Source: a virus (taxonomy: Duplodnaviria; Heunggongvirae; Uroviricota; Caudoviricetes). Taken from it: 12,725 nt of DNA. The notes beneath the pieces are model-generated. The model was not told the origin of the DNA. It saw nothing but the letters and a program-made list of their open reading frames with translations, and made no database searches. Positions 1-12,725 of this stretch are shown in pieces. The stretch lies in the IMG/VR virus record IMGVR_UViG_2859827302_000006, one strand, 5' to 3'. Both the position numbers and the translations under genes were made by a program. Numbering within the stretch: position 1 is the first letter of the stretch; each line of letters begins with the position of its first letter.

Positions 1-1461
1 ATGAAAAAATTACTGCGTCTTTTTTTCCCGCTCTCGCTGCGGGTACGTTTTCTGTTGGCAACGGCTGCGGTAGTACTGGTGCTTTCGCTTGCCTACGGAA
101 TGGTCGCGCTGATCGGTTATAGCGTCAGTTTCGATAAAACTACGTTTCGGCTGTTACGTGGCGAGAGCAATCTGTTCTATACCCTTGCGAAGTGGGAAAA
201 CAATAAGTTGCATGTCGAGTTACCCGAAAATATCGACAAGCAAAGCCCCACCATGACGCTAATTTATGATGAGAACGGGCAGCTTTTATGGGCGCAACGT
301 GACGTGCCCTGGCTGATGAAGATGATCCAGCCTGACTGGCTGAAATCGAATGGTTTTCATGAAATTGAAGCGGATGTTAACGATACCAGCCTCTTGCTGA
401 GTGGAGATCATTCGATACAGCAACAGTTGCAGGAAGTGCGGGAAGATGATGACGACGCGGAGATGACCCACTCGGTGGCAGTAAACGTCTACCCGGCAAC
501 ATCGCGGATGCCAAAATTAACCATTGTGGTGGTGGATACCATTCCGGTGGAGCTAAAAAGTTCCTATATGGTCTGGAGCTGGTTTATCTATGTGCTCTCA
601 GCCAATCTGCTGTTAGTGATCCCGCTGCTGTGGGTCGCCGCCTGGTGGAGTTTACGCCCCATCGAAGCCCTGGCAAAAGAAGTCCGCGAACTGGAAGAAC
701 ATAACCGCGAATTGCTCAATCCAGCCACAACGCGAGAACTGACCAGTCTGGTACGAAACCTGAACCGATTGTTAAAAAGTGAACGCGAACGTTACGACAA
801 ATACCGTACGACGCTCACCGACCTGACCCATAGTCTGAAAACGCCACTGGCGGTGCTGCAAAGTACGCTGCGTTCTCTGCGTAGTGAAAAGATGAGCGTC
901 AGTGATGCTGAGCCGGTAATGCTGGAGCAAATCAGCCGCATTTCACAGCAAATTGGCTACTACCTGCATCGTGCCAGTATGCGCGGCGGGACATTGCTCA
1001 GCCGCGAGCTGCATCCGGTCGCCCCACTGCTGGACAATCTCACCTCAGCGCTGAACAAAGTGTATCAACGCAAAGGGGTCAATATCTCTCTCGATATTTC
1101 GCCAGAGATCAGCTTTGTCGGTGAGCAGAACGATTTTGTCGAGGTGATGGGCAACGTGCTGGATAATGCCTGTAAATATTGCCTCGAGTTTGTCGAAATT
1201 TCTGCAAGGCAAACCGACGAGCATCTCTATATTGTGGTCGAGGATGATGGCCCCGGTATTCCATTAAGCAAGCGAGAGGTCATTTTCGACCGTGGTCAAC
1301 GGGTTGATACTTTACGCCCTGGGCAAGGTGTAGGGCTGGCGGTAGCCCGCGAAATCACCGAGCAATATGAGGGTAAAATCGTCGCCGGAGAGAGCATGCT
1401 GGGCGGTGCGCGGATGGAGGTGATTTTTGGTCGCCAGCATTCTGCGCCGAAAGATGAATAA
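1..1461 (+). CDS. phoQ: Sensor histidine kinase PhoQ of the PhoP/PhoQ two-component system, full length (486 aa)
   Basis: Translation is recognised as enterobacterial PhoQ: two N-terminal transmembrane segments, periplasmic acidic patch EDDDDAE, HAMP region, H-box [11 protein letters not shown], and ATPase motifs DNACKY, DDGPGI, GQGVGL; ends in TAA at 1459-1461. Confidence 0.96.
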
Positions 1462-1675
1462 ATATGTCCTTTTATCACTATATCAAGACAAACCATTGAT
1501 TTAATTAAATAATCTACACTGAAAAAGTGCCAAAAATCGCAAATTGACTACACCATTAACTACACCGTTCGGTGCACCGTATGAAACAACGTGGAACAAA
1601 TAGACACAAGAAATATACAGGCGGATCATCTTTCCAGGGGGAAGCGCACCAATTCATGAGGGGCGTTAATGTCTA

Positions 1676-2470: not shown

Positions 2471-2535
2471 GGGTCCTTCCTGGAATTATGGCCCGTTACG
2501 GGGCGGCGACCTCGCGGTTTTTCGCTATTTATGAG
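2471..2535 (+). other. Lambda-type cos site (cos-1), cosN cohesive-end sequence GGGCGGCGACCT at 2501-2512, inverted relative to cos-2
   Basis: CCCGTTACGGGGCGGCGACCTCGCGGTTTTTCGCTATTTATGA matches the phage lambda cosN region and left-end leader with a one-base difference; the flank GGGTCCTTCCTGG resembles the lambda cosQ-side sequence. Confidence 0.75.
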
Positions 2536-2729: not shown

Positions 2730-3170
2730 TTAACTTTGCTGTTCTGTAACGACTGATTGTTCCATGCTGGCACGGCGAACGCTTACGGCATGACGCCACC
2801 CAGCCAGAAAGCCAGCCATTTTATTTCGTGCCTTGCTCACATCTTCCGGTGAATAGCCGTAAATCTGCAAACCTTCATCAAATCGATGTTCTGTTTCTTC
2901 ACTGGAGTACTCGTCACGCTCAGATGAAAGCAGCCTGGCAAACATAATTTTTTCCAGCGCACTGGTTTCTACGTGATATCTGATGGCCTCAAGACGGCTT
3001 TTACCTGAAGACCAAAGCAATGTATGCCCGATGTGATAACCGCCAGACTTTCCGCGATCCGCATTAAGATACGGCATCCCCTGTTTGGTCCATGCGCGAA
3101 TAGTGGTTCTGTTAACCTTGAAATGTTCAGCTATTTCCTGCTGACTTACAAAACAAGCTTTATCAATCAT
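2730..3170 (-). CDS. Terminase small subunit homolog (lambda Nu1-like winged-HTH N-terminus); candidate packaging-redirection protein
   Basis: N-terminus QQEIAEHFKVNRTTIRAWTKQGMPYL parallels lambda Nu1 KKQLADIFGASIRTIQNWQEQGMPVL; ATG at 3170 with AAGGTA ribosome-binding site; cos-2 lies about 70 bp upstream, as in lambda cos-Nu1. At 146 aa it is shorter than Nu1 (181 aa). Confidence 0.85.
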   Translation of the reverse strand: MIDKACFVSQQEIAEHFKVNRTTIRAWTKQGMPYLNADRGKSGGYHIGHTLLWSSGKSRLEAIRYHVETSALEKIMFARLLSSERDEYSSEETEHRFDEGLQIYGYSPEDVSKARNKMAGFLAGWRHAVSVRRASMEQSVVTEQQS

Positions 3171-3240
3171 AATGTTACCTTAACCGCATGGTTAAATATT
3201 AATCAAGTGGTGGTGGTGTCACCTTCACGGAAAAACGTCA

Positions 3241-3300
3241 TAAATAGCGAAAACCCGCGAGGTCGCCGCCCCGTAACGGGTCCATATGCCGGAAAGGACC
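3241..3300 (-). other. Lambda-type cos site (cos-2) with cosQ-like flank, oriented toward the Nu1-like gene
   Basis: Minus-strand reading GGTCCTTTCCGG...CCCGTTACGGGGCGGCGACCTCGCGGGTTTTCGCTATTTATGA matches lambda cosQ/cosN/left-end sequence; cohesive-end 12-mer is the complement of 3260-3271. Confidence 0.8.
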
Positions 3301-3302
3301 CG

Positions 3303-3332: not shown

Positions 3333-3746
3333 TCAGATGGTTTTCAGTATGCGCTCGATGTCGCCATCATCGCCCGGGTTTCTGCCGTCGTATGCCATGC
3401 CAGCTGAAACGGCTTGCGGGCTGTGCATGTCCATAAAGTTTTCAAAGGCTGCGGTAAGCTCCGGCGCAACCTTCTGGCGTTCCTGCTCTATGGTCATGCT
3501 AAGGATGCTTTTAGCCGTACCAACATCGATACAAGGCACGTTTGCCATTGCACGTAACAGCGGCTGATAGTCGTTATGCTCATGAAGCGCCATAATCGCA
3601 TCAGCGCGCGGCTTGTCCTGCTCTTCCAGTTTGTTGAGTTGATATACGGCCTCGTAGGTTGATAAACCTCTGTCAGCCATTGCCCGCGCTTCGGCTTTAA
3701 ATTTACTCGCCAGCGGTAGCGTCATGATGCTTTCATTCGTTGCCAT
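3333..3746 (-). CDS. Hypothetical protein (137 aa), last gene of the capsid operon
   Basis: ATG at 3746 with GGGGGA ribosome-binding site 4 nt upstream; 12 nt downstream of the D-like gene stop; protein-like composition; no recognisable motif. Confidence 0.65.
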   Translation of the reverse strand: MATNESIMTLPLASKFKAEARAMADRGLSTYEAVYQLNKLEEQDKPRADAIMALHEHNDYQPLLRAMANVPCIDVGTAKSILSMTIEQERQKVAPELTAAFENFMDMHSPQAVSAGMAYDGRNPGDDGDIERILKTI

Positions 3747-3758
3747 CGTTCCCCCTGC

Positions 3759-4094
3759 TTATCGGGCCAGCGGCTGAACGGATACGCCAGAACCCGCAAA
3801 GGCGGCGCATTTTTTCGCATCGGTGTCGACGCTCTCGGGCCAGTTCACGGCGGCGATATTAAAGATCCCCGTCTTGTAGCACTGTGCTGATTTCTGCTTT
3901 GACGTGTCCACGGGGTACGAAGTCAGATAAACAGCCTTTCCGGACGCCTGACCATCCCACGGCTTAAACTCGCCATTGTCCGCCAGCATCAGCGGGGTAA
4001 ATTCCTGAATGACGCCAGCATCAGCGGCAAAATGTACCAGCGTCGTGGATACCTGCTGACTGCCTGCAAATAACTCAATGTATGGAGTGTTCAT
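3759..4094 (-). CDS. Head decoration protein homolog (lambda gpD-like), 111 aa
   Basis: Size matches gpD (110 aa); C-terminal YKTGIFNIAAVNWPESVDTDAKKCAAFAGSGVSV parallels gpD [35 protein letters not shown]; ATG at 4094 with GGGGGA ribosome-binding site. Confidence 0.7.
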   Translation of the reverse strand: MNTPYIELFAGSQQVSTTLVHFAADAGVIQEFTPLMLADNGEFKPWDGQASGKAVYLTSYPVDTSKQKSAQCYKTGIFNIAAVNWPESVDTDAKKCAAFAGSGVSVQPLAR

Positions 4095-5782: not shown

Positions 5783-6205
5783 TTAAAACGGTATGTTATC
5801 CCCGTACGGATCATCATTCCCCGCCTGTTGTTTTGCCCTGTTCAGCGCGTCAGTAGCCTGGCCCTGTTGACCTTTTTTGCCGCCCAGTCGCGCCGTTCGC
5901 GCACTGATTACACTGTCTGCGATAACCTGCCAGCCCTGCCGCGTTTCTCCGTTCTGCCCAGTCCACTGGCTGATCTGCATGTTACCCGCCACGCTCAGGA
6001 GTTCACCCTTGCGGTGCCTTTCCAGTGCTTCGGCCTGTCTGCCAAATGCCAGGACGGATAACCACATCGTCGCCGTTCCGTCATCTGCCTGGCTGCACGG
6101 AAGGGGGACCGCCATACGTGCCAGCGTCATTGGTGTGCCCTTGCTGGTCTGTTTTACCTGCGGGTCGTCCACCAGCCGCCCGTAAGCTGCTATCTGTGCT
6201 GTCAT
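5783..6205 (-). CDS. ssb: Single-stranded DNA-binding protein homolog (140 aa)
   Basis: OB-fold-like N-terminal region, Gly/Gln-rich linker and acidic C-terminal tail ending DDPYGDNIPF (compare E. coli SSB DDDIPF); strong ribosome-binding site GGAGAGGTGG; ATGA overlap with the upstream gene. Confidence 0.8.
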   Translation of the reverse strand: MTAQIAAYGRLVDDPQVKQTSKGTPMTLARMAVPLPCSQADDGTATMWLSVLAFGRQAEALERHRKGELLSVAGNMQISQWTGQNGETRQGWQVIADSVISARTARLGGKKGQQGQATDALNRAKQQAGNDDPYGDNIPF

Positions 6206-6483
6206 GATTCCACCTCTCCGGTTTTAACGTTGATGGTTGTTACCTGTTCCGCTTCGGCAATCTCCCGTTCTGTCAGCGTGGCAAAGTTTGCCGCCGCCGT
6301 GGTCATGAATGCGCTTATCAGGTCGGGATGTTCCTTCGCGTATCCTTCCCGCGTGTGGCGGTCTATCGTTCTGATTGCCACCTTTAAGGTGTGCTCAGTC
6401 ATGTCTAACGCTTTATATTTTGGCTCTGTTCTGTCTCTGCGTTTTTGGGTCATTTCTCGCAACCTCTCACTTTTTCGCCTCAC
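6202..6483 (-). CDS. Hypothetical small protein; true start probably the internal ATG at 6453 (about 83 aa)
   Basis: Stop overlaps the SSB start (ATGA); the ORF 5-prime end overlaps the iterons, and the in-frame ATG at 6453 has a GAGAGG ribosome-binding site. Confidence 0.5.
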   Translation of the reverse strand: MRRKSERLREMTQKRRDRTEPKYKALDMTEHTLKVAIRTIDRHTREGYAKEHPDLISAFMTTAAANFATLTEREIAEAEQVTTINVKTGEVES

Positions 6484-6657
6484 TTTTTCAAGCGTCTCAC
6501 TTCGTCGCAGTTGGGATTTTCGGTTTTTCTATGTGTGTGTTTCATAAGTATTTTTTTACCCCTCACTTTTGAGGATGTATACAGGTCGAAAAGTGAGGGA
6601 GAGCGGGCTAATTTTGGCCCTCTTTCTATCCCCCTCGCTTTTGCTCCTCACTTTTAT
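6463..6657. repeat. Iteron array, putative replication origin: seven copies of CTCACTTTT (two variants, one inverted) around an AT-rich spacer
   Basis: Copies at 6465-6475, 6478-6488, 6495-6504 (variant), 6561-6570, 6589-6599 (inverted), 6634-6642 (variant) and 6646-6655; AT-rich stretch 6510-6560; lies directly 3-prime of the Rep ATPase gene. Confidence 0.6.
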
Positions 6658-8054
6658 AGCGGCGCTACATCATCCCCATCGATACGAATAACCCCATCTT
6701 TTTCCAGCTTGTACAGCCAGCGCCGGAAGTTTTTCATTTCATACCCCAGCTTTTTCATGTCATCACGTAACAGCGGGATCGTGCACTTGTCGCCGTTCTG
6801 TGTGCGTGAACGGATGCACCCCCATAGCGCGGTATGGTTTTCCGTCTTGTTCCCTGCCTCCTCGATGCGCTCCAGTTCAACAGGAGGGCGCGGATCATCC
6901 ACCACCACCAGCGACGTGATTAATTCACCGTCAGCGTCGGTAAAAAGCTCCACCACGCGTAAGTCATATGCGGCTTCTTTGAGTTCCTCCGCGTCCTTCA
7001 TTTTGGTGCATGAGATAACCAGCGCTTCGCTTCCTGCGTCCTCCCTGCGTATCCGGTATTCAGCATCCAGCGAAGCACGAAATGCACTGGAACCGCGCGC
7101 GCCTTTCGTCTCATCCTTGCCGGAATGGTGAACCACCAGCACCGTGGCCCCTGTGCGTCGTTTCAGTTCGTCACAACCACGGATAAACGCCCCCATATCA
7201 CGGGAATCATTTTCATCATTCCCACCAAAGCAACGCGCCAGCGTATCCAGAATAATCATGCGTACAGGTTTACCCGTTTCCCGCTCCACCTGACGGGCAG
7301 CGATAACCATTTCATCAACATCAAGCGGGGCAGCCGGAAAGATGGGGCGGTTTACCAGATACAGATTTTTCACCTGCTCATCGTGCACAACCTCCCAGGC
7401 TTTTACACGACGCGGAACACCTATACCGCCTTCACCAACCACATAGAGAACCGCACCATGTGCAACCCTGCGGCCTCCCCACTGGCGACCAGTGGCAACA
7501 TGGCACGCCCACGATCCGGCAAGGAATGATTTATAGGACCCGCTAGCTCCGTATATGCTGCATAGCGATACCGCCGGAATAATCCCCTTAACCACGTAAT
7601 CCAGTTGCGTGTCGTATCCGGTAGATCCAACGCTCATCGGTAGCGTGGTTTTTCGCTGGTGGTTTTTTTCTTCCGCCGGCTCTTTCCCGCGCACCCGTTC
7701 CAGGTATTCGCGCCAGTTCTCCCGCATATGGCTGTGCATCCCTTCGGGGTAATAATTCGCATCAGTTACACCCGCCGCCGCCAGCTTGTGCGCAATGGCA
7801 TTAATATTTGATGGCCTGATGTGGCCTGCCTTGTACAGCCGGACACAATAGCGCCCCTCGTCGATGATTCTCAGGTCTGCCAGTTCATCCAGTTGATCAT
7901 CAGCCAGCACAACGGGAGGCACATTATCGCCAGCCAGTCGCCCGTCCTGTTCCTGCCACTGTTTCGCATGTGCCCAGGCATCACTACCCGCAAAAATAAT
8001 GACTTCGGTCATCTTGTCGTAAGGCTGTTTTTTTAAGTTCGGTGCGCTTTTCAT
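6654..8054 (-). CDS. RepA-like RecA-fold (AAA_25-type) replication ATPase, putative initiator-helicase (466 aa)
   Basis: Walker A GASGSYKS, Walker B-like MIILDTLARCFGG, motif VLVVHHSGKD and a basic C-terminal region; ATG at 8054 with AGGGG ribosome-binding site and ATGA overlap with the upstream gene. The N-terminal 150 aa have no recognisable primase motifs. Confidence 0.85.
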   Translation of the reverse strand: MKSAPNLKKQPYDKMTEVIIFAGSDAWAHAKQWQEQDGRLAGDNVPPVVLADDQLDELADLRIIDEGRYCVRLYKAGHIRPSNINAIAHKLAAAGVTDANYYPEGMHSHMRENWREYLERVRGKEPAEEKNHQRKTTLPMSVGSTGYDTQLDYVVKGIIPAVSLCSIYGASGSYKSFLAGSWACHVATGRQWGGRRVAHGAVLYVVGEGGIGVPRRVKAWEVVHDEQVKNLYLVNRPIFPAAPLDVDEMVIAARQVERETGKPVRMIILDTLARCFGGNDENDSRDMGAFIRGCDELKRRTGATVLVVHHSGKDETKGARGSSAFRASLDAEYRIRREDAGSEALVISCTKMKDAEELKEAAYDLRVVELFTDADGELITSLVVVDDPRPPVELERIEEAGNKTENHTALWGCIRSRTQNGDKCTIPLLRDDMKKLGYEMKNFRRWLYKLEKDGVIRIDGDDVAPL

Positions 8055-8350
8055 TTCTTGCCCCTGAATCCGTTAACCATGGTTTTCAGCTTCTGGATGT
8101 TTGCCCGTGCCCTGGCGTTGCTGGTGGGCACGTTATGCGGCGCGGTCTGTACCAGAGAAAAATCACGCCGGAACTGATAAACAGGCATCACGCAATCATA
8201 TTCGTAACCTTCACGGCGGTAGGTTACACGCCGTTCTTCCACGCCCTTAATCATTACCGTGCCGCCGTACTGGTCGCGGTAAATATCACCGCGCGTAAAT
8301 TTAGGGTGAGTGTTGCCACTGGCAGTTAAGCCAGAATATTTAAGTTTCAT
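8051..8350 (-). CDS. Hypothetical protein (99 aa)
   Basis: GGAGAA ribosome-binding site before the ATG at 8350; stop overlaps the Rep start (ATGA). Confidence 0.55.
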   Translation of the reverse strand: MKLKYSGLTASGNTHPKFTRGDIYRDQYGGTVMIKGVEERRVTYRREGYEYDCVMPVYQFRRDFSLVQTAPHNVPTSNARARANIQKLKTMVNGFRGKK

Positions 8351-8355
8351 TATTT

Positions 8356-8589
8356 TTATTCTCCGGTGTGCTGTTCTTTATATCTGTCGTGCAATAGATC
8401 TATTTCTTGCAGTTCCATTATTACAGGCTCAAGAAGCGTTATTAATGCCGTGGCAATTCTTGATTTTTGTTTGTCGCGTTCATTGTCGCCAAGTGTTTCA
8501 AGCCATATGCGCAATATTTCCAGCATGTTTTCACTGTGAGAAAGTGCAAGAAATGCGCGGTCTATTGTTTCGTGGTAAATATCACGCAT
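8356..8589 (-). CDS. Hypothetical protein (77 aa)
   Basis: ATG at 8589 with GAGGA upstream; start overlaps the stop of the 196-aa gene by 8 nt. Confidence 0.5.
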   Translation of the reverse strand: MRDIYHETIDRAFLALSHSENMLEILRIWLETLGDNERDKQKSRIATALITLLEPVIMELQEIDLLHDRYKEQHTGE

Positions 8590-9386: not shown

Positions 9387-9606
9387 GTACCCCTCCGCAT
9401 TTTTTTTCGTTAGAAATAAGCGTTCTTCTTTCCTGTTCATCGCTCAGGAATACGCAGACCTCACCGCTAAGGCGTTTAAGTAAGCCGATGATTGCCCCTG
9501 ATTCGCTGTCGGTCATCATGCTAGGGTAATCCTCTGCCAGTGCGCAAATAACTTCGATTTGGTGGGCGCGTTCTGCTGCCTGTTGTAGTGTGATTTCCTG
9601 GCTCAT
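9376..9606 (-). CDS. Hypothetical small protein (76 aa)
   Basis: ATG at 9606 overlaps the preceding stop (ATGA); GGGGG upstream. Confidence 0.5.
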   Translation of the reverse strand: MSQEITLQQAAERAHQIEVICALAEDYPSMMTDSESGAIIGLLKRLSGEVCVFLSDEQERRTLISNEKKCGGVHVQ

Positions 9607-9803
9607 AAGCCTACCCCCTGACGAATACGGGCAGCAAATACCATCACGCAGCCAGCCGGAGATTGCTGGCGTGCTTCCTGTTCGCTGGTGGCCTCAATGG
9701 TAATCACGCGCGGTTGTGCCGTGCTCAGGGCGATAAAACGCCAGATGTATTTATTCAGGTTGTGCGAGTCCCGCCCTTTCGGGTGTGTGGTATGATTTCT
9801 CAT
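9603..9803 (-). CDS. Hypothetical small protein (66 aa), first gene of the main leftward operon; it is the C-terminal part of the 428-codon stop-free frame
   Basis: In-frame ATG at 9803 with GAGG ribosome-binding site, about 90 nt downstream of the predicted minus-strand promoter. Confidence 0.4.
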   Translation of the reverse strand: MRNHTTHPKGRDSHNLNKYIWRFIALSTAQPRVITIEATSEQEARQQSPAGCVMVFAARIRQGVGL

Positions 9804-9900
9804 AGCTACCTCGATACTGTTGCTATCGTTGGTGGTTAGAAGCCCCGTTACTGCTCCTACAGTGCGGGGTTTCGTCGTTTCTGTGCCTTTCATCAATAAG

Positions 9901-9981
9901 GTGTAAGACACAATGTAAAACAATGGTGTCTTACACGTCAACCCTTCAAAATATTTTTTTTTCGTGTATATTGTCTTACAC
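9901..9981. promoter_or_regulatory. Divergent promoter/operator switch between the RHH gene (+) and the main operon (-)
   Basis: Inverted repeat GTGTAAGACAC (9901-9911) / GTGTCTTACAC (9926-9936) plus half-site GTCTTACAC (9973-9981); + promoter TTCAAA (9945-9950)-16 nt-TATATT (9967-9972); minus promoter TTGACG (complement of 9936-9941)-17 nt-TTACAT (complement of 9913-9918). Confidence 0.55.
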
Positions 9982-10002
9982 CAAAAACATGAGGGGTTAA
10001 AC

Positions 10003-10182
10003 ATGGCAACGGGTCCAAAGAATGCAAAATCACAATCTGTAACTGCACGTATTGCCCATGAAATTATTGAAGGCATGGAGAACGTGAAAGAAGAAGGCGA
10101 AAGCACGGGACAGTTTATAAACGCAGCCATGCGCGGCGAAATCAAACGCCGCCAGCGCCGCAAGGCCAAAGAGCAGGAGTAA
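10003..10182 (+). CDS. Ribbon-helix-helix (CopG/Arc/MetJ-like) DNA-binding protein, about 59 aa; candidate repressor of the switch
   Basis: ATG at 10003 with GAGGGG ribosome-binding site; the pattern SVTARIAHEIIEGMENVKEEGESTGQFINAAMRGEIKRR fits a beta-strand plus two helices; the ORF-track start at 9964 (GTG) lies inside the promoter. Confidence 0.7.
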   Translation: MATGPKNAKSQSVTARIAHEIIEGMENVKEEGESTGQFINAAMRGEIKRRQRRKAKEQE

Positions 10183-10224
10183 CCATCACCAGCGCCGTGG
10201 TGTGAGTAACTACGGCGCATTGCT

Positions 10225-10413
10225 ATGCAGGACAACACAATGACCGATAAAGAATTGACCAAAACATTATCACCGGCACGGAAAAGACGGCGCAGAAAGA
10301 TAGAGCATGAATCAGAAAGATTCGCGCCATGTGCTTTTGCCCTTGAGCAATTCCTTAAAGAGTACAGGGAAAAGCGCTCATTGCAGGTATGGCAACGAAC
10401 TGAACCAGACTGA
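10225..10413 (+). CDS. Possible small Arg/Lys-rich protein co-transcribed with the RHH gene (likely start ATG 10240)
   Basis: Weak AGGA ribosome-binding site; basic stretch ARKRRRRK; followed by a + strand terminator. Could instead be untranslated. Confidence 0.35.
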   Translation: MQDNTMTDKELTKTLSPARKRRRRKIEHESERFAPCAFALEQFLKEYREKRSLQVWQRTEPD

Positions 10414-10490
10414 TTGCATTGCCCACCAGCCGCAAATGTGGCATTATTGGCAATGCTCATGCGTTGGGGATAACGTGTAGCTTGTGTCGA

Positions 10491-10520
10491 GGGGCCACCG
10501 TAGCGGGTGGCCTTTGTTTT
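10491..10520 (+). terminator. Rho-independent terminator of the RHH transcription unit
   Basis: GGCCACC-GTAGCG-GGTGGCC (10493-10512) followed by TTTGTTTT; a second weaker hairpin plus T-run lies at about 10613-10646. Confidence 0.6.
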
Positions 10521-10526
10521 GCCCGT

Positions 10527-10889
10527 TATTCGGCAATTGTGGCGCTTCTCCACATGGTTGATATAATCCCACTGCTCAGATTCATTTTTTGCGCAGTAGG
10601 TTAATTGTTCACAAAGGCGCTCCGGCAACGGGGCGCTTTTTGTTTTTATTAGTTTGTAGAAACCTGACTCAGAGATAATGCTCATATTCTGATTGCCGTC
10701 AGGGGTGTAAGTTAAATTTACTCCCTTTTTATCATCAAACATCTGCAACGCTCTGGCGTTAACAATATTGGTTTCACTCCCGCCAGTAAGGCCGGAAATA
10801 ACCGGAATAATTTCGGCAAAATTTTGCAGATTCTGTTTTTCAGGACGAACGAAGCCCCGCCCTTGTTCGGGAGAATATCCAGTATTCAT
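10527..10889 (-). pseudogene. Possible decayed gene with a Bro-N-like antirepressor N-terminus; the frame runs on without a stop to 9603
   Basis: The first 95 or so codons look protein-like and include ISESGFYKLIKTKSAPLPE, reminiscent of the Bro-N motif; downstream the frame is antisense to the RHH operon and rich in C/S/R; weak ribosome-binding site. Confidence 0.3.
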
Positions 10890-11495: not shown

Positions 11496-12725
11496 TTATA
11501 TTTCTCTGGCTATTGGCAATGTGGTTACGTTTTCATGTGTTCCCGCCAGTATCCCTAACCGCTCCGTCCACATATCCAGCGCGTCACGTTTCGCATCCAG
11601 ATAACGGGAATGGTTATAGACTCGTTGCATCCCTGGCATCTGATGACCTGTAAGCTGCTCCACGACGTGAGGATCCACGCCTAAATCGTTCAGCATCGTT
11701 GTAAAGGTGCGCCGGATGTCATGCAGTGACCAGTGAGGGTGTTTTAGCCTCCTGTGCGCTAATCTGCCGTACTGCGACACGCTTGTTTCCTGTTTCACTT
11801 CCCCCAGCAATAAGCCCGTGTGCCTGTTCTGCTCCACCAGCTGCGTGACGAACGGCAGTATTGCTTCCGGTATGGGCCGGAATATTGCCACCTTCGTTTT
11901 GCTGTGTTCTTTCGGCACGGTCCAGAGCATTTCGGTAAAATCCCACTCGCTGATCTCCGATAACCTCAGTTCTACCGTCCGGCATCCGAAAACAATCAGG
12001 AGGCGGATTAGTGCGACGTAGTAAGGGGAAAATATTTTTTTGTCCAGTGCCTGCAATAATTCGCCAAGTTCTTTGGTGCTTAAGACACGCTCGCTTATAT
12101 CCGGTTTTTTCCCAACGTCCGCCACACTCATATCATCAAGAACGTTGCTGATTGCATAGCGCCGCCTCCGGCAGAACTTAAGCGCCTGTTTGCACGTCTG
12201 TAGCAAGAATCCGGCAGTAACAGGCGTTCGCTTTGCCACCTGGTCAAAACAGGCCAGCCAGTGCCGTAGCTCGCATTTATCCAGCGGCATAGCACCAATG
12301 TGCTGTATTACGTGATTATTAAGGCGCTTTTTCAGGGCGGCATAATCCACGCGGTTTTCCTTTACGTAAGACTCAAGCCAGTAGGTAAGCGCATCGCCAA
12401 CCGTTACGGGCTTTAACGCTTTCTGTACGGTGTAATTCATCTCATGACGTGGATTTTTCCCCTCAGCAAGCCAAGCGCGACACTGTGCCGCTTTTTCCCT
12501 GGCAGCTTTCAGACTCAGATCAGGATAATTTCCCAGCTTAATCCGTTCCGGTCGTGCTCCCCTTCCCGTTCCGGCCCTGTAGGTGAAATACCAGGTTAAA
12601 AGGCCGCTGGTTGAATGCCTGACGCTCAGGTTTCCACCGTCATTAAGAAAGGCTGTTTTTTGGGCGGGTGTGCCGTTGATTTTCCTTAGCTGTGTATCAC
12701 TCAGTTTGTTAAGTGCTCTGCGCAT
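11496..12725 (-). CDS. int: Tyrosine site-specific integrase, P4-type (409 aa); start codon at the window edge
   Basis: N-terminal arm-binding region with the LNDGGNLSV motif (compare P4 Int LADGGGLYL); C-terminal catalytic signature with R in GCRTVELR, HxxR in LHDIRRTF and the Tyr region GHQMPGMQRVYNHSRYL. Confidence 0.92.
   Translation of the reverse strand: MRRALNKLSDTQLRKINGTPAQKTAFLNDGGNLSVRHSTSGLLTWYFTYRAGTGRGARPERIKLGNYPDLSLKAAREKAAQCRAWLAEGKNPRHEMNYTVQKALKPVTVGDALTYWLESYVKENRVDYAALKKRLNNHVIQHIGAMPLDKCELRHWLACFDQVAKRTPVTAGFLLQTCKQALKFCRRRRYAISNVLDDMSVADVGKKPDISERVLSTKELGELLQALDKKIFSPYYVALIRLLIVFGCRTVELRLSEISEWDFTEMLWTVPKEHSKTKVAIFRPIPEAILPFVTQLVEQNRHTGLLLGEVKQETSVSQYGRLAHRRLKHPHWSLHDIRRTFTTMLNDLGVDPHVVEQLTGHQMPGMQRVYNHSRYLDAKRDALDMWTERLGILAGTHENVTTLPIAREI

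Follow-up and report, generated by a model that had tools for sequence, protein, structure and literature searches.

The 12,725-nt stretch of DNA analysed here (the window) is an E. coli phage-inducible chromosomal island (PICI) of the EcCICFT073/EcCIRM12579 type, integrated between phoQ and roxA(ycfD), and the 200-nt gap between the stop codon of its rep gene and the ATG of orf83 (positions 6454-6653) is, by analogy with published origins, most likely its replication origin. The gap holds an array of short iterons, the outermost of which reaches position 6655. A preliminary description of this DNA had already suggested a likely island origin next to its initiator, and comparison of sequences strengthened this suggestion: the array is tied to rep, its layout is the one published for PICIs, and residue 442 of Rep covaries with the iteron. 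According to PMC6092414 and PMC9371898, PICI origins occupy the region 3' of rep and consist of two iteron sets placed round an AT-rich region. In the window, the array likewise lies directly 3' of rep, and two iteron sets flank an AT-rich region. For EcCICFT073, PMC6092414 describes a thermosensitive plasmid that replicated when it carried rep together with its 3' region and that no longer did so when either rep or ori was deleted. Origin function is therefore proposed here by analogy with the Rep/ori pair of EcCICFT073, an island that is syntenic with ours but whose Rep/ori pair is not homologous. We count against the origin reading that the AT-rich stretch of the window is short (~40 bp), that the iteron orientation departs from the SaPI pattern, that the array is lean, that the Walker A motif of Rep is unusual, that a primase domain is lacking and that mosaic arrays occur in nature.

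The identity of the island follows from its att core, GGACATATTT (1460-1469, minus strand, at the phoQ end of the island), from the EcCICFT073 gene order and from a Rep identical to that of EcCIRM12579. The same GGACATATTT is given as the att core of EcCICFT073 and EcCIRM12579 at ycfD(roxA)-phoQ in a supplementary table of PMC6092414. The phoQ gene occupies 1-1461 at the left end of the window, and nearly everything to its right is an integrated element of ~10 kb that reads on the minus strand. PICIs are recognised by an integrase, a regulator of the AlpA type, a specific att site, genes ordered in one direction and a size of ~10-15 kb, and the att core, the synteny and the identical Rep place this element among them. 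In minus-strand order, the integrase gene (11496-12725, cut by the window end) is followed by small regulator genes, by a DUF4222 gene upstream of rep (8051-8350) and by rep itself (6654-8054), which encodes a 466-aa initiator-helicase (Pfam AAA_25, E=2.4e-43; RefSeq 'helicase RepA family protein', WP_000833618.1). Past the array come orf83 (6202-6453, ATG at 6453), an 83-aa gene assigned to phrog_1231 of unknown function that starts 13 nt past the last iteron, and the island SSB gene (5783-6205), all on the minus strand; a lambda-E-like capsid gene, a lambda-D-like decoration gene and a small HTH/terS-like gene follow SSB. The integrase protein accession is common to EcCICFT073 and the syntenic window island. 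Compared with EcCIRM12579, Rep has the same protein accession and the rep-array-orf83 segment differs at 3 of 1853 nt. When positions 6300-8400 were used as a query against 5426 complete E. coli genomes, 1674 matched some part of the rep region and 616 had one match that spanned 80% or more of the query; the best match to the rep-ori query reached at least 99% identity in 367 of the genomes.

Two further features of the island were observed outside the rep region. Exact copies of the lambda cohesive-end cosN 12-mer, GGGCGGCGACCT, lie in inverted orientation at 2501-2512 (plus strand) and 3260-3271 (minus strand), each within a 72-nt arm (2470-2541 and 3231-3302; the arms are 86% complementary), and the arms bracket a 146-aa HTH/terS-like gene (2730-3170). 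An EcCICFT073-type island should have one cos, so the inverted pair is odd and could represent an invertible or duplicated packaging segment. Separately, a 428-aa ORF at 9603-10889 on the minus strand is probably not a real gene; its translation is low-complexity and rich in Cys and Ser, and in the closest annotated genome the stretch beneath it is occupied by several small genes (Icd-like, YlcI/YnfO), some on one strand and some on the other.

The position of the array after the RepA-like ATPase gene was as first described, between the rep stop codon and the ATG of orf83. Seven copies of CTCACTTTT had been counted there; the array is real, but only five copies are exact, while the other two are degenerate and carry one and two mismatches. 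Read from the rep side, iteron 7 (6647-6655, plus strand; exact, AAAAGTGAG in the rep sense) shares 2 nt with the rep stop codon, and iteron 6 (6634-6642, plus) is a degenerate CTCGCTTTT with one mismatch that aligns with intact copies in relatives. Iteron 5 (6589-6597, minus; exact) is the sole inverted copy, and its position at +62 to +67 after the stop codon is kept in relatives. It forms a head-to-head pair with iteron 4 (6562-6570, plus; exact), which also borders the AT-rich stretch. This pair had been noticed before, and its arms (6560-6570 and 6589-6599) proved to be 11 nt long, 100% complementary and 18 nt apart, with a GTATAC core (6577-6582) at their midpoint. Beyond the AT-rich stretch lie iteron 3 (6496-6504, plus), a degenerate CTCACTTCG with two mismatches, and the exact iterons 2 (6479-6487, plus) and 1 (6466-6474, plus); the rep-sense GAGAGG of iteron 1 overlaps the likely ribosome-binding site of orf83. 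The AT-rich stretch itself (~6517-6559, ~27-30% GC), a candidate DNA-unwinding element, is indeed flanked by the copies, four on the rep side and three on the far side. Windows of 40 nt at 6520-6579 had a GC content of 27.5-30%, compared with 45-65% in the surroundings. Viewed in the rep direction, the iteron unit is a 9-10 bp AAAAGTGAGG repeated at irregular spacing, and the order is two direct iterons from the stop codon, a spacer, the inverted pair round GTATAC, an AT stretch of ~40 bp and three direct iterons. A TGTATA(T/C)A-like motif is present at the position of the core (window 6571-6588) in all clades and is conserved between the head-to-head iterons even in clades whose iteron sequence differs; it may be a first melting point or a host-factor site.

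The clustering of these repeats exceeds chance. Any 8-mer occurring at least four times was found in none of the 235 342-nt windows outside the array region of the 12.7-kb sequence, against a count of 5 in the array region. A scan of the window for CTCACTTTT with up to one mismatch returned just two scattered matches outside the array and no second cluster. Within its family, the array of the window is the poorest, with 6-7 copies as opposed to 9-11 in relatives, and several of its copies have decayed. This leanness and degeneracy, together with the complete loss of the array from some distant loci (L081, L086 and L088), would fit repeats that are a decaying remnant without present function in this island. 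We regard such a remnant as very unlikely, because Rep is intact, rep-ori is kept at the identity given above in the 367 E. coli genomes, and the island still has its five exact copies, its perfect inverted pair and its AT-rich stretch.

Relatives were scanned with one genome per species, which gave 80 loci with Reps 50-72% identical, of which 77 were usable. The loci came from Xenorhabdus, Pectobacterium, Serratia, Morganella, Pantoea, Kosakonia, Citrobacter and others of the Enterobacterales. An 8-mer present at least four times occurred in the 342 nt 3' of rep at 54 of the 77 loci, versus 10 of 2244 control windows taken from the same loci. Copies recurred at similar offsets from the rep stop codon, with one or two copies in direct orientation at +11 to +26, one in inverted orientation at ~+62, another direct one at ~+93 and further copies at ~+154, +180 and +192, and the first iteron lies at the rep stop in relatives too. 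Mean AT content over 96 related loci peaked at 0.67-0.71 between +99 and +140 after the rep stop, which is the same offset as in the window. The neighbouring genes did not follow this pattern: orf83 and SSB were present in none of the Enterobacterales relative loci, and DUF4222 in just two. Because the array keeps its position after rep while the neighbour genes change, these comparisons support an array that is tied to rep and not to the genes next to it. Among the loci compared, L002 (the SRY206 locus) is a truncated, frameshifted island and was set aside as uninformative.

Closer relatives gave a measure of constraint. Across 16 E. coli loci, pairwise identity was 0.91 at the constant iteron positions versus 0.62 in the spacers, and none of 5000 random placements of the blocks matched the value of 0.91. 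This conservation pattern shows selection acting on the repeats, and their changes are concerted. In the comparison with EcCICFT073, the stretch without similarity between the two islands coincides exactly with rep codons ~50-466, the array and the opening codons of orf83. At the equivalent place EcCICFT073 carries an array of unrelated iterons, CTGTCTACC, and its Rep core is non-homologous. Since a non-homologous Rep core coincides with different iterons at the same place, Rep core and origin are exchanged as one cassette. The N-terminal ~122 residues of Rep (window 7689-8054) and the N-terminus of the EcCICFT073 Rep (L101:5242-5610) share 62% identity, and as the N-termini are alike while the rest is unrelated, the junction of the replication cassette lies inside the rep gene.

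We then considered the Rep protein itself. It consists of an N-terminal domain (residues 1 to ~125), a RecA-fold RepA/DnaB-like ATPase core (~148-335), a linker predicted with low confidence and a C-terminal winged helix. RSF1010 RepA (1g8y) was its best sequence match in the PDB, and Pfam returned AAA_25 alone, with no primase domain and no Rep_3. The N-terminal domain common to both Reps is predicted as an alpha/beta fold (pLDDT ~80-90). ATPase activity is assumed from the sequence: the Walker A motif (Rep 169-176, window 7527-7550) reads GASGSYKS, with Tyr before the Lys where Gly is usual, and S171-S176 are invariant over 25 homologues, down to 59% identity. The full-length AlphaFold model had an overall pLDDT of 67 with confident prediction of the C-terminal ~65 residues, and a fold search with this model gave just weak RecA-fold matches (Rad51, RadA, KaiC). 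When the C-terminal domain was modelled alone, pLDDT exceeded 90 and the domain comprised three helices and a beta-hairpin. The predicted winged-helix domain spans residues 400-466 (6657-6857, minus strand), with helices at 405-419 and 426-435, a recognition helix at ~440-452 and a wing at 456-465. Among the Foldseek PDB matches listed for this domain, most were winged-helix regulators (probability 0.9-0.99, TM 0.55-0.73), including ArsR, Fur, DtxR/IdeR, MepR, LexA, DnaD-N and ORC. A PDB sequence search with the C-terminal domain gave no match, which left homology to the origin-binding domain of P4 alpha unsupported. The preliminary description had named a basic C-terminal region as the candidate for iteron binding. 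The location stands, since a winged helix is predicted there and residue 442 within it covaries with the iteron; the region is not merely a basic tail, and the models support a folded winged helix at ~residues 400-466 as the binding determinant.

Residue 442 of this domain (codon AAC, 6729-6731, minus strand; Asn in the window) emerged as a candidate specificity residue for iteron base 6. Among 345 alignment columns scored over 67 classified loci, it ranked first, with a mutual information of 1.35 bits that equals the full entropy. The pairing of residue and base held at all 67 loci: Asn occurred with A (24/24), His or Lys with G (36/36) and Ser with C (7/7). In the winged-helix model residue 442 is placed at the N-end of the recognition helix, where its surroundings hardly vary (there is no variation at K441, W446, K449 and L450, and almost none at F443, R445 and L447). 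Among E. coli Reps, residue 442 alone separates those with GAG-type from those with GGG-type iterons. The Reps P0047 and P0004 illustrate this directly, as their last ~75 residues differ just by Asn/His while every iteron differs by GAG/GGG. In IMG/VR, 80 loci representing 58 distinct helix-plus-array combinations gave the same result (Asn with GAG in 27/27, His with GGG in 31/31), and the Rep of a Klebsiella episome with Ser442 had GCGGC iterons. An out-of-sample set was assembled, for which 12 Rep proteins were picked by residue 442 alone, predictions were made beforehand and the contigs were fetched afterwards. All 11 predictions held (Asn to GAG 5/5, His to GGG 5/5, Ser to GCGGC 1/1); the twelfth Rep, with Gly442, fell outside the predicted pairings and was accompanied by AAATGCGC repeats.

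In protein-DNA complexes Asn usually prefers adenine, and His and Lys prefer guanine, and the observed Asn-A and His/Lys-G pairings agree with these general preferences. Part of the covariation could be linkage, because codon 442 lies just ~75-270 nt from the iterons. Linkage as the sole cause is opposed by the fact that all copies change in concert and by the independence of the switches: on a neighbour-joining tree built without column 442, there were ~5 changes of iteron type, each matched by a change of the residue. From these correlations it is very likely that Rep binds these repeats, and they suggest that specific recognition of the iteron is a property of the C-terminal winged helix. 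We lean, by a smaller degree of confidence, towards the view that residue 442 sets which iteron is accepted (Asn GTGAGG, His/Lys GTGGGG(G), Ser GTGCGGC) and that Asn/His switches have repeatedly re-tuned arrays within E. coli.

The core types differ by clade and comprise GTGAGG, GTGGGG, GTGGGGG and GTGCGGC. The full unit is AAGTGAGG in the window, in locus L008 and in Xenorhabdus, AAGTGGG(G) in other E. coli and in Pantoea, AAGTGGGGGAA in Pectobacterium, Serratia and Morganella, and AAGTGCGGCAT in Kosakonia, Enterobacter and Kluyvera. In switches from clade to clade, every copy within an array changes together. In Xenorhabdus beddingii (L010, ~3586-3920) two complete arrays stand in tandem behind one rep. 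The first is of the GTGAGG type, which matches the Asn442 of its Rep; the second, ~225 nt further, is of the GTGGGG type and has its own inverted pair but no cognate Rep nearby. Two IMG/VR loci (L138 and L139) have natural mosaic origins within 230 nt after rep, in which the rep-proximal set, four iterons with the inverted pair among them, is of the GAG type and matches Asn442, while the distal set past the AT-rich stretch is mostly of the GGG type. These mosaics look like recombination within the origin, and they hint that the proximal iteron set is the one obliged to match Rep. In another three loci (L014, L022 and L032, from Xenorhabdus and an Enterobacteriaceae MAG), AAATGAGG takes the place of AAGTGAGG, and the only Rep residue private to them is Asn452, at the far end of the recognition helix, where others have His or Gln. 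Residue 452 Asn with A at iteron base 3 may be a second residue-base pair, seen so far in one clade. We also considered whether co-resident islands use different iteron types to avoid cross-talk, and found this idea unsupported, as both arrays are of one type in the genomes with two islands (Xenorhabdus TCT-1, X. bakwenae, X. stockiae and Pectobacterium B2J-2). Because these co-resident Xenorhabdus and Pectobacterium islands share one iteron type, cross-talk avoidance is not obviously a driver of iteron switching.

The covariation speaks for binding and not for initiation, and it would also fit an array that served mainly in transcriptional control, with Rep or another island protein gating read-through into orf83-SSB-capsid or autoregulating, and with an origin elsewhere or helper-dependent replication. 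The array does lie directly upstream of orf83 in the same orientation, and its last iteron overlaps the likely ribosome-binding site. Initiators of iteron plasmids commonly double as repressors. We nevertheless consider mainly transcriptional control unlikely. No sigma-70-like promoter and no minus-strand terminator were detected at 6300-6800, rep keeps its array even where wholly different genes lie downstream, and the AT-rich stretch is kept at a fixed offset. Moreover, the equivalent region of EcCICFT073 is needed in cis for replication (PMC6092414). A regulatory side role could exist alongside origin function.

Packaging or recombination offers another account, in which the repeats would be a cos/pac recognition, attachment or resolution site and not a replication element. 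Repeated terminase-binding sites are a feature of satellites, and one of the island genes codes for the small HTH/terS-like protein. The exact lambda cosN 12-mers and the att core, however, are located elsewhere in the island (see above), and the repeats covary with Rep and not with genes for packaging; they are also kept in islands whose packaging modules are unrelated. We judge a packaging or recombination site to be the most improbable of the explanations considered. Other candidate identities for the gap were rejected in turn. A cos site was dismissed given the cosN copies at 2501-2512 and 3260-3271, and an orf83 promoter given the lack of a sigma-70-like site at 6300-6800. A Rho-independent terminator for rep was discarded as well: on the rep strand an A-run comes after the inverted pair, and the scan gave no minus-strand terminator. 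The only Rfam match, SprD, scored 19.8 bits against a gathering score of 100 and was attributed to chance, so no structured RNA was called. Finally, no DnaA box with up to one mismatch was found at 6400-6700, and a DnaA-dependent origin was rejected.

Under the origin reading, the array would function as follows. By analogy with SaPI and EcCICFT073, Rep would be made after helper-phage induction and island excision. Its C-terminal winged helix would bind the iterons, with residue 442 reading base 6, and Rep would oligomerise on them. It would presumably melt the adjacent AT-rich DNA and load itself as the replicative helicase, and the fork would be completed by the island SSB together with host polymerase and, probably, host primase. 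A natural example bears on this scheme. CP018459.1 (Klebsiella pneumoniae pKp_Goe_795-4), a circular molecule of 16,971 bp deposited as a plasmid, has this Rep type and cognate GCGGC iterons as its only recognisable replication functions. Its genes also include an integrase, a capsid gene, a head-tail adaptor, an annotated tail tape measure protein and two terminase genes, and it is apparently an episomal capsid-forming PICI-like element.

As the expected origin of a catalogued satellite-island type, the array mainly confirms a known rule and does not define a new system. What it adds is that the initiator of a very common E. coli island lineage is a RepA/DnaB-like helicase fused to a predicted winged helix, unlike the primase-type protein of the tested prototype, and that Rep core and origin are swapped between islands as one cassette. 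The residue 442 pairings also lead to the prediction that Rep with N442H would prefer an origin with GGG iterons to one with GAG iterons, in a switch from its present preference. Were this prediction to prove true, it would provide a minimal model of how initiators and origins diversify and a source of orthogonal, helper-inducible replicons. If our reading of residue 442 is true, there would be a widespread family of helicase-initiators with a RecA-fold motor that is not among the characterised satellite Reps (SF3, MCM-like), and one substitution could be enough to reprogram origin specificity, from which sets of small orthogonal replicons would result.

The system was compared with known replicons of several kinds. 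A classical iteron plasmid (Rep_3/RepA-pi-TrfA, with WH1-WH2) was rejected, since Pfam gave just AAA_25, the iterons are 9-10 bp and not 17-22 bp, and there are no DnaA boxes. RSF1010 and the IncQ plasmids are related through the helicase core, as RepA is the closest solved relative of the ATPase core (1g8y) and belongs to the same Pfam family, AAA_25. IncQ plasmids rely on a separate initiator, RepC, which binds 20-bp iterons, and on a separate primase, RepB', for priming. In the window, by contrast, origin recognition would be fused to the helicase as the predicted winged helix; no RepC or RepB gene was found among the island ORFs, and an IncQ replicon, of which only the helicase core is related, was rejected. 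The alpha protein of P4 is a satellite initiator in which a helicase is joined to a C-terminal origin-binding domain for short repeated octamers, and the window Rep resembles it in its predicted C-terminal domain and short repeats. P4 alpha differs in combining a primase with an SF3 helicase and in requiring two separated repeat regions (ori and crr), whereas the window has one array with no second iteron cluster, no primase domain and a RecA-fold core, so that a P4-like replicon was also rejected; P4 is discussed in PMC6092414.

The SaPI Reps resemble the window Rep in arrangement. In these helicase-initiators a winged helix at the C-terminus binds the iterons that lie downstream of rep (PMC9371898), and the window Rep shares with them a C-terminal winged helix (predicted here), short iterons directly downstream of its own gene and an AT-rich region among these iterons. 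Their motors are SF3 or MCM-like AAA+ (PMC9371898), whereas the window Rep has a RecA fold and is RSF1010-RepA-like. SaPI iterons are 5-6 bp long and face each other across the AT region (PMC9371898); those of the window are 9-10 bp, the copies at 6562 and 6496 share one orientation, and the inverted pair is wholly rep-proximal. EcCICFT073 is also among the closest known systems, and the experimentally tested version is its own. Its Rep is a 584-aa 'DNA primase family protein', as opposed to the 466-aa RepA/DnaB-like helicase without a primase domain in the window, and its CTGTCTACC iterons are unrelated to AAAAGTGAGG. The two islands nevertheless have in common the N-terminal ~122 residues of Rep, short iterons in both orientations and a neighbouring SSB gene, and they share the att site, the gene order and the placing of the origin, a probable one in the window, directly 3' of rep (pri-rep/ori of EcCICFT073; Fillol-Salom et al. 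2018, PMC6092414).
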